Shown: one piece after another, positions 21,341 to 25,208 of the stretch
How the letters are laid out: each line of letters begins with the position of its first letter
Numbering within the stretch: position 1 is the first letter of the stretch
Source of the DNA: Prevotella sp.
GTDB lineage: Bacteria; Bacteroidota; Bacteroidia; Bacteroidales; Dysgonomonadaceae
Assembly: GCA_031285625.1 (NCBI GenBank)
Contig: JAITVV010000043.1
Span: 32,001 to 96,000, forward strand
Direction of reading: 5' to 3'
DNA length: 64,000 nt
Translations under genes and position numbers: made by a program
Notes under the pieces: model-generated
Seen by the model: the letters and a program-made list of their open reading frames with translations, nothing else
The model's database searches: none
Told to the model about the DNA's origin: nothing

Positions 21341-22309
21341 CTAAAAAGCTGATGCCTTCAATTTTAACCCTACAGTCTCTTCCAGACCAAAGATCAGGTT
21401 CATATTATGAACAGCCTGACCGGAAGCACCTTTCACTAAGTTATCTATACATGAGAGAATGAGAAACTTATTACCATGCTTTTCGAGATGCAAAACACAC
21501 TTATTAGTATTTACTACCTGCTTCAGATCAATATTCTTATCTGAAACAATAACAAATGGACTATCTTTATAAAAGTCTTTATATATTCTTTCAGCATCTT
21601 CTATCGTCCCATCATAGTTAAGATACGTAGAAACAAAAATACCTCTGGTAAAATTTCCGCGTACAGGTATAAAATTAATTTCGGATGCGAAATTTGCCTG
21701 TAATTGGGTCAATGACTCACCTATCTCTTGCAGATGCTGATGTTCGAAAGCTTTATATACCGATATATTATTTTCACGCCAACTAAAATGAGATGTTGCG
21801 GAAGGCTTCACTCCTGCCCCTGTAGATCCGGTAATAGCATTTACATGAATTTCTGTATTCAGCAATCCTGCATTGGCCAATGGTAATAGGCCTAACTGTA
21901 TAGCTGTAGCAAAACAACCCGGATTAGCAATATAAGAAGTATTTTTTATTTTCTCTTTGTTTAGTTCAGGCAGTCCATATACAAATTTATTACCCTCTGC
22001 TTTGTGGCGATAATCTGTAGACAGGTCAATTATTTTCAAGTGACCAGGTATCTGGTTTGCTTCCAGAAACTTTTTAGTATCTCCATGAGCCGTACAAAAG
22101 AACAGAACATCAATCTTCTCGTAAGGTAACTGATCTGTAAAAGACATATCTGTCTCGCCCAAAAGTCCTCCATGAACGTCTGTTAACTTATTTCCCGCAT
22201 TACTGGTACTGTTTACAAATACCAGTTCCACTTGTGGATGGTTGAGTAAGATTCTTATCAGTTCTCCCGCCGTGTAGCCTGCGCCACCTATTATTCCTGC
22301 TTTTATCAT
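21341..22309 (-). CDS. argC: N-acetyl-gamma-glutamyl-phosphate reductase
   Basis: GGAGYTAGEL, DLSTDYR, IANPGCFATA, DNLVKGASGQA. Confidence 0.95.
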   Translation of the reverse strand: MIKAGIIGGAGYTAGELIRILLNHPQVELVFVNSTSNAGNKLTDVHGGLLGETDMSFTDQLPYEKIDVLFFCTAHGDTKKFLEANQIPGHLKIIDLSTDYRHKAEGNKFVYGLPELNKEKIKNTSYIANPGCFATAIQLGLLPLANAGLLNTEIHVNAITGSTGAGVKPSATSHFSWRENNISVYKAFEHQHLQEIGESLTQLQANFASEINFIPVRGNFTRGIFVSTYLNYDGTIEDAERIYKDFYKDSPFVIVSDKNIDLKQVVNTNKCVLHLEKHGNKFLILSCIDNLVKGASGQAVHNMNLIFGLEETVGLKLKASAF

Positions 22310-22325
22310 TACAATATATTTATTG

Positions 22326-22764
22326 AAACACAGAGTAAGAAGAGTAGAAAAGAGTTTATATTGAATATCTTTTTATTCCGTCTCTCAATGATTTCACATT
22401 AAAATTAATCAAATATCCGATTTTACATCTGGAAAGTTTTAGATATGTAAATAATTGCGCTATATGAAGCGGATGTAGTTCTGCTACTGCTTTCAATTCA
22501 AGAATAACCTTGTTCTCTACTAATAAATCTACCCTGTATCCAGCTTCGATTTCGATACCTTTGTATTCAATAGGCATTTCTTCTTGGCGTGTCACGCGTA
22601 AACCACTTTCTGCTATTTCATAGAAAAGACATTCTTCATATACTCTCTCAAGTAATCCCGGTCCAAGAGCAGAATGTACATCATATGCGCATCTTAATAT
22701 TTCTCCTGTTAATTTTTGCTCTTCAAACATAAAAACTCTTTTCTACTCTTTTTACTCTGTGTTT
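22326..22764. repeat. 32-bp inverted repeat enclosing the GxxExxY gene
   Basis: 22326-22357 AAACACAGAGTAAGAAGAGTAGAAAAGAGTTT vs reverse complement of 22733-22764: 31/32 identical. Confidence 0.9.
22356..22730 (-). CDS. GxxExxY protein (PD-(D/E)xK nuclease-like)
   Basis: VHSALGPGLLERVYEECL, YRVDLLVE, ILELKAV, QLFTYL, LINF. Confidence 0.92.
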   Translation of the reverse strand: MFEEQKLTGEILRCAYDVHSALGPGLLERVYEECLFYEIAESGLRVTRQEEMPIEYKGIEIEAGYRVDLLVENKVILELKAVAELHPLHIAQLFTYLKLSRCKIGYLINFNVKSLRDGIKRYSI

Positions 22765-22774
22765 AATACAATTA

Positions 22775-23974
22775 TTACTTTCCGTTTTTCTTCTGTACAC
22801 TATGATATATCTTATTAGTCATAGCATATATCTTGGTAAACCCTTTTGCATCATCCGATGTCCATGCTTTGTTCATTTCACCATATTCACCAAAATCGGC
22901 TTTCATCAGGTCAAATTCACTTTCTATGCCCACAAGTGTATAATGATATGGTTTCAGTTCAACAATAACCTTTCCTGTTACATTTCGTTGCGAACTGTCA
23001 AGCATAGCTTCGATATCACGCATTACAGGCTCAAGATACTGAGCTTCATGCAAAAACATGCCATACCAGTTACCCACCTGATCTTTCCAGTATTGCTGCC
23101 ATTTAGTAAGCGTATGTTTTTCCAGCATCTTATGCGCGTTAATAATTACAAGCGGAGCAGCTGCTTCAAAACCTACACGACCTTTTATTCCTATAATAGT
23201 ATCACCTATATGCATATCACGACCTATAGCATAAGCCGATGCTATTTCTTCTATTTTTTGTATAGCTTTTACTTTATCTGTATATTTTTCGCCATTTACC
23301 GCTGAGATTTCTCCTTCCTTAAAATCAATAGTCAACGTTTCTGAGCCTTGTTTCTTCAGTTGGGAAGGGTATGCATCCTCGGGTAAGGTCTGATCCGACT
23401 TCAATGTTTCTTTTCCGCCGATACTTGTTCCCCAAAGACCTTTATTAATAGAATACTCCATCTTTGTGAAATCGGCTTCATAGCCATGTTCTTTCAGGTA
23501 ATTGATTTCGTATTCACGGGTAAGTAGCATATCACGTGTAGGGGTGATAATCTCAATACCGGGAGCAAGCACATCGAAAGTAAGGTCGAAACGCACCTGA
23601 TCGTTGCCAGCACCTGTACTGCCATGAGCTACCGCATCAGCACCAATTTCCTTTGCATAATTAATAATAGCGATTGCCTGAAAAATACGTTCGGAGCTTA
23701 CAGATATAGGGTATGTACCATTACGCAATACATTACCAAAGATCATGTATTTTATACTCTTCTCATAATATTCTTGCGTAATATCAAGACTAACATGCTT
23801 TACTGCACCTAATTTATAAGCCTTTTCTTCAACAACTTTCAGTTCTTCGGGCGAAAAGCCTCCGGTGTTAGCTATTGCCGTGTAAACCTCATAACCAAGA
23901 TCAGCTGATAAATATTTGGCACAAAAAGATGTATCTAATCCTCCACTGAATGCTAAAACGACTTTCTTTTTCAT
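22775..23974 (-). CDS. argG: Argininosuccinate synthase
   Basis: VVLAFSGGLDTS, AHGSTGAGNDQVRF, GIKGRVGFEA. Confidence 0.95.
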   Translation of the reverse strand: MKKKVVLAFSGGLDTSFCAKYLSADLGYEVYTAIANTGGFSPEELKVVEEKAYKLGAVKHVSLDITQEYYEKSIKYMIFGNVLRNGTYPISVSSERIFQAIAIINYAKEIGADAVAHGSTGAGNDQVRFDLTFDVLAPGIEIITPTRDMLLTREYEINYLKEHGYEADFTKMEYSINKGLWGTSIGGKETLKSDQTLPEDAYPSQLKKQGSETLTIDFKEGEISAVNGEKYTDKVKAIQKIEEIASAYAIGRDMHIGDTIIGIKGRVGFEAAAPLVIINAHKMLEKHTLTKWQQYWKDQVGNWYGMFLHEAQYLEPVMRDIEAMLDSSQRNVTGKVIVELKPYHYTLVGIESEFDLMKADFGEYGEMNKAWTSDDAKGFTKIYAMTNKIYHSVQKKNGK

Positions 23975-24069: not shown

Positions 24070-24702
24070 TTAAAGCTTACCTTTTTCAATCTTCTTTATT
24101 ATTGCTTTTACTTCTTTCTTATCCTTTTGTTTTTCAGGATCGAAAAGCATGGCCGTGCATATACAGTATTTTCTCTCGGTACGGGTAAGCACATCATAAT
24201 TCACACACCCCTGACAACCTCGCCAAAATGCCTCATCATCAGTCAACTGTGCAAATGACACCGGTACATAACCAAGTTCTGTATTTATTTTCATTACAGC
24301 AGCTCCCGATGTTAACCCAAATACTTTTGCTTCAGGAAACATGGCTCTGGCCAGAGAAAAAGCATGTTGCTTGATCTTTTTAGCCAAACCGTGTTGTCTA
24401 AATTTCTCAACTACAATAAGTCCTGAGTTTGCAACATATTGCTTGTTACCCCAGGATTCGATATAGCAAAAACCGGCAAATTCATCTCCCATAAGAGCGA
24501 TAATAGCTTTTCCTTCCTTAATCTTGAGTTCAAGATATTCGGGCGAACGTTTTGCAATACCTGTACCGCGAACTTTTGCCGCAGCTTCTATTGTATCCAA
24601 TATGGTCTGCACATAGCTAAGATGCTGCTCTCCTGCTATCTGTATAGTGAGTTGTTGTTGCTCCATGGGTTTTTCTACCACTAGTTCTTCTACGTTGTTC
24701 AT
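24070..24702 (-). CDS. GNAT-type N-acylglutamate synthase candidate (Bacteroidetes ArgA-like)
   Basis: RGTGIAKRSPEY, FCYIESW, ANSGLIV, FWRGCQGC; lies between argR and argG. Confidence 0.75.
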   Translation of the reverse strand: MNNVEELVVEKPMEQQQLTIQIAGEQHLSYVQTILDTIEAAAKVRGTGIAKRSPEYLELKIKEGKAIIALMGDEFAGFCYIESWGNKQYVANSGLIVVEKFRQHGLAKKIKQHAFSLARAMFPEAKVFGLTSGAAVMKINTELGYVPVSFAQLTDDEAFWRGCQGCVNYDVLTRTERKYCICTAMLFDPEKQKDKKEVKAIIKKIEKGKL

Positions 24703-24712
24703 TGTTATTGTT

Positions 24713-25168
24713 CTATTGAATATTGGGTATAAATGCAGATAATGAGTCAATAACTTCCTCTCTGCTTATATTTTCTCTTGGTATCAGCAAGATGGTATCA
24801 TCACCTGCTACTGTACCTAATATATATCCGGATGCCTTATTATCTATTTCACCTGCTATTGCCATTGCATAACCGGGACGAGTCTTCATTACGGCTAATT
24901 GGCCTGAAAACTCAATACTGACAAAACCGAAAGAAGATAAAGGATTTTCATCCTGAATAGTAGCTATATTTTCGGAGAACTGATAGATGTAACTTCCCTG
25001 TGATGTCGGCACTTTTACTATTTTCAGTTCCTTTATGTCACGCGACAGTGTAGCCTGAGTAAGCTCAAAGCCTCTTTCTATCAACATCTTAAGAAGCATA
25101 TCCTGACTATTTATTTCACTCGTCTGAAGCACTTCCTTTATTATTTTATGTCTGAATTTTTTAGTCAT
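24713..25168 (-). CDS. argR: Arginine repressor
   Basis: TQATLSRDIKEL HTH, KTRPGYA, GTVAGDDT; ATG 25168. Confidence 0.95.
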   Translation of the reverse strand: MTKKFRHKIIKEVLQTSEINSQDMLLKMLIERGFELTQATLSRDIKELKIVKVPTSQGSYIYQFSENIATIQDENPLSSFGFVSIEFSGQLAVMKTRPGYAMAIAGEIDNKASGYILGTVAGDDTILLIPRENISREEVIDSLSAFIPNIQ

Positions 25169-25169
25169 A

Positions 25170-25208
25170 CACGTATAAATATGCAAAAACAATGCAAAAA
25201 TATACATT
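25170..25208 (-). promoter_or_regulatory. Tandem ARG boxes overlapping the argR operon promoter
   Basis: Cores TGTATATTTTTGCA (25206-25193) and TGCATATTTATACG (25185-25172), equivalent to 18-bp boxes 3 bp apart; TATTTTTG -7 motif at 25195-25202. Confidence 0.7.

Follow-up and report, generated by a model that had tools for sequence, protein, structure and literature searches.

A GxxExxY nuclease gene between inverted phased heptamer arrays in a Prevotella arg operon: a candidate repeat-and-nuclease element resembling REPIN/RAYT systems

Introduction

Intervening sequences (IVSs) of 23S rRNA can carry an open reading frame (ORF) for a four-helix bundle (PF05635), and the Correia/NEMIS elements of Neisseria are MITEs (miniature transposable elements with inverted repeats) that are co-transcribed with host genes. 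TnsA is a transposon endonuclease of the PD-(D/E)XK type. BrickBuilt of Porphyromonas gingivalis is presented in PMC4596501 as a modular MITE of a single species, built from a 23-nucleotide (nt) unit without spacers. The REPIN/RAYT systems of Proteobacteria pair doublets of repetitive extragenic palindromic (REP) sequences with REP-associated tyrosine transposases (RAYTs) (PMC3337134). Here we describe a cassette that sits between argG and argC in a 64,000-nt stretch of a Prevotella sp. genome (contig JAITVV010000043.1 of assembly GCA_031285625.1, positions 32,001–96,000; the whole stretch is called the window, and its first letter is position 1). The cassette consists of a gene of the GxxExxY family (PF13366) and two inverted arrays of short phased units that enclose it.

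GxxExxY/PF13366 is a large family in bacteria, archaea and viruses, and PMC3424549 lists its function as unknown. Steczkiewicz et al. 2012 enter GxxExxY as of unknown function, with the remark 'multiple transfers, mixed clades'. A search of the full-text literature, in which subscription journals and supplements were not covered, found no description of GxxExxY genes with such arms, and the repeat-plus-nuclease family is apparently undescribed. An original prediction, made from the letters of this stretch, had offered two readings of the cassette: a minimal mobile cassette without a transposase, or an IVS-like sequence in mRNA; it added that the protein may act on its own arms. From the comparisons reported here we lean, by a little, towards the view that the locus holds a resident, gene-bearing member of a widespread family of repeat-and-nuclease elements, which would resemble REPIN/RAYT systems in logic, use another enzyme fold and be expressed by read-through of the host operon.

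Results

Anatomy of the cassette

The features of the cassette and of the genes on either side are as follows.

22729–22764, minus strand: 5′ (gene-proximal) arm, from repeat finder and script comparison
22356–22730, minus strand: GxxExxY gene, 124 amino acids (aa), ATG start, from ORF and PF13366/TIGR04256 match
22326–22361, minus strand: 3′ (distal) arm, reverse complement of the 5′ arm, overlapping the stop codon at 22356–22358
22765–22774, minus strand: short spacer that separates the stop of argG from the 5′ arm, left boundary of the insertion from junction comparison with congeners
22310–22325, minus strand: A-rich spacer that separates the 3′ arm from the start of argC, resembling the whole spacer of cassette-free genomes
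22775–23974, minus strand: argG, argininosuccinate synthase, upstream in the operon, from ORF and profile match
21341–22309, minus strand: argC, N-acetyl-gamma-glutamyl-phosphate reductase, downstream in the operon, from ORF and profile match

The repeat finder delimited two arms of 36 nt (22326–22361 and 22729–22764) that are 94% complementary and 367 nt apart. Script comparison showed identity at 34 of 36 positions, and the match breaks off right outside the arms. Read on the minus strand, the 5′ arm begins with a T-rich/AAAC lead, continues with three phased units (CACAGAGT, AAAGAGT and AAAGAGT) and ends in TTTTT that runs into the ATG. The alignment of one flank against the other scored 64 at the cassette; 500 random pseudo-genes of the same genome gave a mean of 15.7, a 95th percentile of 20 and a maximum of 29. 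Because that maximum was 29, pairing of the arms by chance is excluded. Within the cassette there is one ORF, which matches PF13366 alone, and no DDE, HUH, serine or tyrosine recombinase family was found; terminal inverted repeats, a feature of classical insertion sequences (ISs) and MITEs, are present.

The anatomy proposed by the original prediction agreed with these measurements. Its 32-nt core gives the 31/32 matches that it had counted, one arm stops 2 nt short of the ATG while the other covers the stop codon, and AGAGT occurs three times in each arm at spacings of 9 and 10 nt. By the 36-nt definition, the 5′ arm reaches into the ATG itself. The placement of the unit between argG and argC in the same orientation also held, as all three ORFs lie on the minus strand; we amend one detail, in that the gene and with it the entire unit are read from the minus strand of the window. 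The assignment to a PD-(D/E)XK-like GxxExxY family was borne out by profile matches, by the intact motif and by the modelled fold.

The protein matched the PF13366 profile with 146.9 bits (cut-off 22) over residues 6–121, and TIGR04256 with 152.8 bits (cut-off 35). Across 88 aligned relatives, residues G25, L26, E28, Y31, D68, E78, K80, Y96, N109 and F110 were invariant; the motif that names the family and the D...ExK nuclease triad are therefore intact. An AlphaFold2 model (mean predicted local distance difference test score 95.1) displayed a restriction-endonuclease-like alpha/beta fold. Its top structural matches were all PD-(D/E)XK nucleases (VIA Z 8.4 to 5.3; Foldseek E values from 2e-3), among them Cas4 SSO0001 (Z 8.4, 96 residues aligned), BpuSI (Z 8.0) and Hjc (Z 6.7, 86 residues aligned), at Z values of a size that, according to the tool, is common between models without any relation. 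The matches of the model thus confirm the PD-(D/E)XK fold class only and are generic, not specific. No relative in the PDB was found by sequence at E values up to 1.

Searches against defence families gave no support (PADLOC best E 0.008, 13 bits) and those against PHROGs phage families gave no match, so that a reading as an anti-phage defence or phage gene is without support. The gene is the sole PF13366 member in this genome, which is 94% complete, and PF05635 had no match anywhere in that genome.

Phased heptamer arrays accompany GxxExxY genes

The arms proved to be inverted arrays of the heptamer CRCNRAG at a period of 9–10 nt. In the genus, 26 PF13366 matches were found; one 46-residue fragment was left out, and the other 25 were analysed. 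We defined canonical genes as those encoding 124–128 aa with at least 131 bits, and divergent paralogues as those encoding 127–147 aa with less than 100 bits. Flanking inverted arrays scored above the 95th percentile of controls at 16 of the 18 canonical genes, and above the control maximum at 15 of them; the corresponding counts for the divergent paralogues were 2/7 and 0/7. The unit varied with the protein group, being CACAGAG/CACGGAG in one, CACTGAG in another and CGCAAAG/CACAAAG in a third.

A wider scan, with one genome per species, found 604 relatives; 79 loci from many phyla were kept, and 77 of these could be scored. Scores of at least 30 were obtained at 45 of the 77 loci versus 0 of 290 shifted controls, and scores of at least 26 at 55 loci versus 2 controls. 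Chance flanking by the ends of two unrelated MITEs was ruled out by the former comparison. The density of CRCNRAG was 23.7 per kb in the 120-nt flanks, 2.2 per kb at a distance of 500–900 nt and 1.8 per kb within the gene. The heptamer consensus, together with an outer T-run/A-C terminus, accompanies the family in Bacteroidota, Cyanobacteria, Planctomycetota, Chlamydiota and archaeal bins.

Each array holds two to four copies of the heptamer. Intervals between units were 9 nt in 81 and 10 nt in 73 of 220 cases, and ahead of the outermost unit stands a T-run followed by A (84%) and C (64%). Among the 79 loci the usual layout, with sense units upstream and antisense units downstream, was seen at 38; the layout was reversed at 4, mixed at 11, one-sided at 22 and absent at 4. 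Phased units stood on both sides of the gene at 33 loci; at these, the two arms were equal in unit number at only 20 and in length at only 15, and the spacers between units were 57% identical with many gaps. Because the arms are often unequal in number and length and their spacers have diverged, conservation lies in the unit and in how it is phased, not in a perfect stem.

As a separate observation, the nearest arrays were reversed at nine loci (L113, L116, L128, L142, L147, L155, L176, L177 and L181), with the T-run/A-C terminus facing the gene in both flanks. At these loci the gene looks set between two separate hairpin elements, not inside one.

Array abundance was also compared with gene content. 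The canonical gene is present in 16 of the 35 genus genomes, and arrays of either pattern were found in all 16, each with at least 3 and 13 of them with at least 10, as against 8 of the 19 genomes without the gene; the reversed-pattern control gave 0–2. In genomes outside the genus, the ratio of genes to arrays was 1:109 (G053), 1:28 (G055), 3:9 (G051) and 5:8 (G054), and G052 had 2 genes with 3 arrays, the control likewise giving 3. Six of the nine arrays of G051 use CACCGAG, the unit in the arms of its own gene, which accounts for 8 of 350 flank units overall.

Gene-less and solo copies of the arms

In the present genome a triple-unit pattern occurs exactly four times, in the two cassette arms and in one convergent pair on another contig. 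This gene-less pair (C14:58797–58931, equivalent to L044:1498–1632) spans about 130 nt and has a 70-nt loop; it is placed between glycosidase-like and transporter genes and is nested within an outer palindromic module (GAAGTCGTCTCGAC plus a T-run). The same element family recurs in G046, G016, G004 and G043. We also observed that the arms of this pair are closer to the cassette arms of G005 than to those of their own genome. Over the 35 genus genomes the strict arm pattern was found 0 to 36 times per genome, with a reversed-pattern control of 0 everywhere, and solo arms are common among the copies. Solo arms and gene-less arm pairs had both been anticipated by the original prediction, and both are present in this genome and in the genus.

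Two findings that the original prediction had named as evidence against itself, fixation of the gene at this position across relatives and a lack of arms around homologues, did not appear: most congeners have no gene at this junction, and arms flank 16/18 canonical genes of the genus and 45/77 loci of other phyla.

The argG–argC junction in congeners

The junction was compared in 22 congeners with both genes on one locus, this genome (G000) among them; G006, G010 and G015, with kilobase inserts at the junction, were left out. Gene and arms occupy the junction in 4 of the 22, with spacers of 465 nt in G000, 454 nt in G004, 522 nt in G008 and 485 nt in G005. In four others relics of the arm ends are all that is seen: the 61-nt spacer of G024 holds a mini-hairpin made from the outer unit of each arm, the 48-nt spacer of G022 keeps both outermost arm ends, and the spacers of G007 (32 nt) and G013 (34 nt) keep one outer arm end each. 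Two junctions, those of G017 (503 nt) and G003 (461 nt), contain gene-less mosaics with other CRCNRAG arrays. The remaining 12 bear no trace of the cassette and have spacers of 1–228 nt or unrelated inserts. This comparison indicates that the cassette at argG–argC is an insertion.

When a tree was built by maximum likelihood from the ends of argG and argC that flank the site (24 rows), the four gene carriers did not form a clade. G004 was sister to the relic-bearing G024 (100/100), G005 was sister to G017 (100/99), and G000 grouped with G019 and G022 (91/81); G008 could not be placed. Identity to the G000 protein is 86% for G004 and 85% for G008, which agrees with their flanks. The G005 protein reaches only 66%, although its flanking gene ends are 89–91% identical, and its arms are of another variant. 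On the simplest history, an old insertion would have persisted in three lineages, been reduced to stumps in several others and given way in G005 to another lineage of the same cassette. Several independent insertions fit the junction pattern as well, and under either history the junction recurrently houses elements of this kind.

The junction takes many kinds of insert. In G016 (locus L011) the 1022-nt spacer includes a complete additional gene, about 330 codons long and oriented like its neighbours, and the inserts in G006, G010 and G015 are of 2–3 kb. L014 (G001) and L021 (G011) have another type of hairpin at this place, with G/C-rich CCCC...GGGG stems, and the argC start seems displaced there.

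Selection, orientation and transcription

Among G000, G004 and G008 the gene has dN/dS (ratio of nonsynonymous to synonymous change) of 0.04–0.07 at pS (proportion of synonymous sites changed) of 0.59–0.64, which indicates strong purifying selection. At this saturation (59–64% of synonymous sites changed), the 5′ arm of G004 is still identical to that of G000 at 35 of 36 positions, and that of G008 differs by one inserted T. In the 3′ arm, both orthologues keep the outer two units and differ in the inner one.

Orientation of the neighbours, called from ORFs of at least 130 aa, could be determined on both sides at 64 of the 79 loci. Both neighbours pointed in the direction of the gene at 46, both pointed the opposite way at 1, and 17 were mixed. 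A T-run lies 5′ and an A-run 3′ of each arm, and no terminator-like site was found on either strand in 22300–22800; a reading of the arms as an intrinsic terminator or attenuator is thereby ruled out. The predicted fold of the minus-strand transcript (−114.2 kcal/mol, z −3.9) has the arms paired, in the minimum-energy structure as well as in the centroid one. Rfam gave nothing beyond chance for the region and for five gene-less loci, and no rRNA match in the region.

Public sequencing runs were consulted as assembled contigs, which cannot reveal RNA ends or rare forms. One contig from an RNA library (run X5) covers argG and the cassette, with DNA carry-over possible. In runs X3 and X4 the contigs are split at the arms into pieces 21341–22355, 22328–22762 and 22735–23957; because an inverted repeat that exceeds the assembler word splits the graph, these breaks are an artefact and not RNA ends. 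No contig joint skips the cassette in the four runs, the two joints listed lie elsewhere, and the contigs are uninformative on excision. Run X4 contains a strain variant with 26 extra nt between the argC start and the 3′ arm (22308–22318). In run X5 the argC contig enters unlike sequence beyond 22307, which may represent a strain with another occupant of the junction.

Other genes of the neighbourhood

Upstream of argG lie two further ORFs.

24713–25207, minus strand: argR, from ORF call
24070–24750, minus strand: acetyltransferase ORF between argR and argG, TTG start as listed

The acetyltransferase ORF overlaps the end of argR by 38 nt, and an internal ATG a few codons downstream is its likelier start.

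Discussion

The reading that we slightly prefer, a REPIN/RAYT-like element of repeat and nuclease, can be put as a series of steps. A promoterless nuclease gene would be seated in an operon spacer between two inverted phased arrays and be transcribed by read-through of the host operon, which would tolerate a cassette free of terminators. These arrays of heptamers would be recognised by the protein, probably with several protomers on one DNA face or on a snapped-back single strand; the former is suggested because the units are phased at about one helical turn. It would then nick or cut at or near the outer ends of the arrays, and this cutting could lead to copying, excision or exchange of the unit, of the far more numerous gene-less arm pairs and of solo arms. 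One gene would thus serve gene-less repeats in trans, as a RAYT serves REPINs. The arg copy would be old, vertically kept in three species, reduced to stumps in sister species and replaced in a fourth. Taken as a whole, the family looks like selfish DNA.

The same evidence prompts a broader proposal, which we hold tentatively and at somewhat less than even confidence. GxxExxY cassettes may form a new class of mobile or self-propagating DNA in many bacterial phyla and some archaea, in which a 124-aa nuclease reads phased CRCNRAG units, cuts at T-run/A-C termini and spreads gene-less hairpins. The arg copy would be an 'autonomous' member of this class at a site that is filled, decayed, replaced or empty in different congeners.

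A number of observations weigh against the repeat-and-nuclease element. No movement event is documented, and the three orthologous cassettes are old, as their synonymous saturation shows; because they are old, one ancient gain followed by many losses and a single replacement could explain the locus. In the present genome the element is nearly single-copy, with nothing that suggests current activity. No recent pair of filled and empty sites was found, so that neither a target-site duplication nor an exact cut site can be defined. Two repeat loci of G005 were searched for in its close relatives G017 and G003, where each gave 60–112 scattered repeat copies and no empty site; the flanks of the gene-less element of this genome are non-syntenic in 34 congeners, again with no empty site. 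Arrays occur in 8 of the 19 genus genomes that lack the canonical gene (at most 6 per pattern), and as the genomes of the genus are related, no probability is attached to the contrast of 16/16 with 8/19. Units and genes do not always correspond: in G023, 20 CACRGAGT arrays occur beside a canonical gene whose arms are CGCAAAG; in G045 most arrays are of the CACTGAG type; and G053 combines one gene with three unit families. The arms of G005 are modules in a larger mosaic of phased repeats (GTTACC, CAGCTA, GTCAGG and so on) that do not fit CRCNRAG, and something other than the GxxExxY protein may shape these repeats. Finally, we know of no PD-(D/E)XK protein of this size that acts as a lone transposase.

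The mismatches in G053, G023 and G045 leave a strict code of one protein for one unit unsupported. As to the mosaics themselves, the intergenic DNA of G005 (L088–L107), G003 and G017 is composed of phased short-unit modules, including GTTACC, CAGCTA, GTCAGG, TTAGCA, TGTTTACTG and others. Queries of 1 kb yielded 60–112 scattered matches each, and CRCNRAG fits only some of the modules.

An explanation at the RNA level is one alternative, and it is compatible with the element that we prefer. The cassette would be an intervening sequence whose arms pair in the polycistronic arg mRNA, with the long stem cleaved either by RNase III or by the cassette's own protein; cutting would free the message of the cassette and leave stem-capped argG and argC messages, and the arms would be signals for processing or translation control, much like 23S rRNA IVS stems or co-transcribed Correia elements. 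The predicted pairing of the arms in the transcript (−114.2 kcal/mol, z −3.9), the arms without a terminator, the extension of the 5′ arm into the start codon and the X5 contig that spans argG and the cassette (DNA carry-over possible) are all consistent with this, and the co-direction with neighbours (46 versus 1) suggests a constraint that acts on transcription. Against it, the arms agree in unit number at only 20 and in length at only 15 of 33 loci, with spacers that are 57% identical. In the G004 and G008 orthologues the inner units of the two arms are non-complementary, solo arms are common, and no Rfam family matched. The explanation also leaves open why arrays are abundant only in gene-carrying genomes. 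We consider it unlikely as the main account. The IVS-like reading is accordingly the weaker of the two that the original prediction had offered, because arms in relatives often differ in unit number and length and a precise stem is not conserved. The other, a transposase-free cassette with a protein tied to its own arms, gained support from the comparisons; movement, and binding and cutting by the protein, are inferred.

Two further accounts assign the repeats or the gene another role. In one, the arrays are host sites, for nucleoid organisation, recombination and repair or mRNA stability, that a domesticated GxxExxY protein maintains or uses; the cassette would then be an ordinary vertical gene regulated by its flanking arrays and immobile today. 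Strong purifying selection, vertical persistence in three species past synonymous saturation and the usual one to three genes per genome would all be expected, and RAYTs, the closest analogue, have also been argued to be domesticated. We think this quite unlikely, a little more so than the RNA-level account, as the canonical gene is patchy in the genus (16/35 genomes), was repeatedly lost to stumps and was replaced by another lineage at the junction, and a host gene need not sit within the repeat that it serves, as it does at 45/77 loci. The entry of 'multiple transfers, mixed clades' beside an unknown function, in Steczkiewicz et al. 2012, also speaks against it. In the other account the gene is a passenger: arm pairs would be moved or generated by an unlinked enzyme or process, with GxxExxY as the commonest cargo, for example as an addiction or defence module. 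Arms in 8/19 genomes without the gene, arms embedded in mosaics of phased repeats unlike CRCNRAG, and mismatches in unit type between gene arms and genome arrays could be read in this way. Yet GxxExxY is the only gene found enclosed by strict-pattern arm pairs in the genus, one heptamer consensus with a T-run/A-C terminus tracks this protein family across phyla, high array counts occur only alongside the gene, and no match to the defence library was significant (PADLOC best E 0.008). Of the accounts considered, the passenger gene seems to us the least probable, and very unlikely.

The link between PF13366 and inverted arrays of phased heptamers gives a family of unknown function a concrete, testable substrate, and offers an origin for intergenic hairpin repeats in the operon spacers of many phyla. 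For annotation, it explains odd long hairpins and breaks in metagenome assemblies within operons. The arg copy adds one site at which filled, decayed, replaced and empty states form a series, together with signs of selection on the arm and a strong orientation bias. Should the arrays turn out to be mobilised by the protein, the two would form a second partnership of the REPIN/RAYT kind, with an independent origin and on another fold, and the protein would be a very small sequence-directed nuclease with possible use as a tool.

Comparison with known systems

Like ORF-bearing IVSs of 23S rRNA, the cassette holds a small ORF within terminal inverted repeats that are able to form a long stem in the host transcript; both are patchy among relatives, and both are transcribed within host RNA. 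The IVSs lie in an rRNA helix and carry a PF05635 ORF, whereas the cassette lies in an operon spacer of mRNA, carries PF13366 and has arms of repeated units that are often unequal. The resemblance is in shape only.

With co-transcribed MITEs the cassette shares an intergenic position, terminal inverted repeats and tolerance within transcription units, and BrickBuilt (PMC4596501) also has internal tandem units. Those elements, however, are gene-less derivatives of classical transposases or orphaned from them, whereas the arms described here enclose a small cognate nuclease gene and have a heptamer consensus that is common across phyla.

Archaeal Hjc, Cas4 and TnsA-type nucleases, which are small and structure-specific, resemble the protein in their minimal PD-(D/E)XK core with an intact D...ExK, Hjc in size and Cas4 SSO0001 in its core. 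They differ in that there is no relation at the sequence level, and the locus has no transposase, Cas protein or helicase that could act as a partner.

The closest likeness is to REPIN/RAYT systems. These have usually one gene per genome with inverted repeat copies flanking it, many dispersed gene-less inverted doublets of about 100–130 nt in intergenic DNA, a repeat abundance tied to the presence of the gene, and a gene held by purifying selection. All of these have their counterpart here, although this genome has only one gene-less doublet. The enzyme of REPIN/RAYT systems is an HUH/Y1 (IS200/IS605-like) transposase, in contrast to the 124-aa PD-(D/E)XK nuclease of the cassette, and their repeat is a single short palindrome headed by GTAG/CGTC, in contrast to phased CRCNRAG arrays behind a T-run/A-C lead. 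Because both the HUH/Y1 enzyme and the single palindromic REP fail to apply, the cassette is not a member of REPIN/RAYT; and the GxxExxY system, unlike REPIN/RAYT, spans many phyla with signs of transfer.

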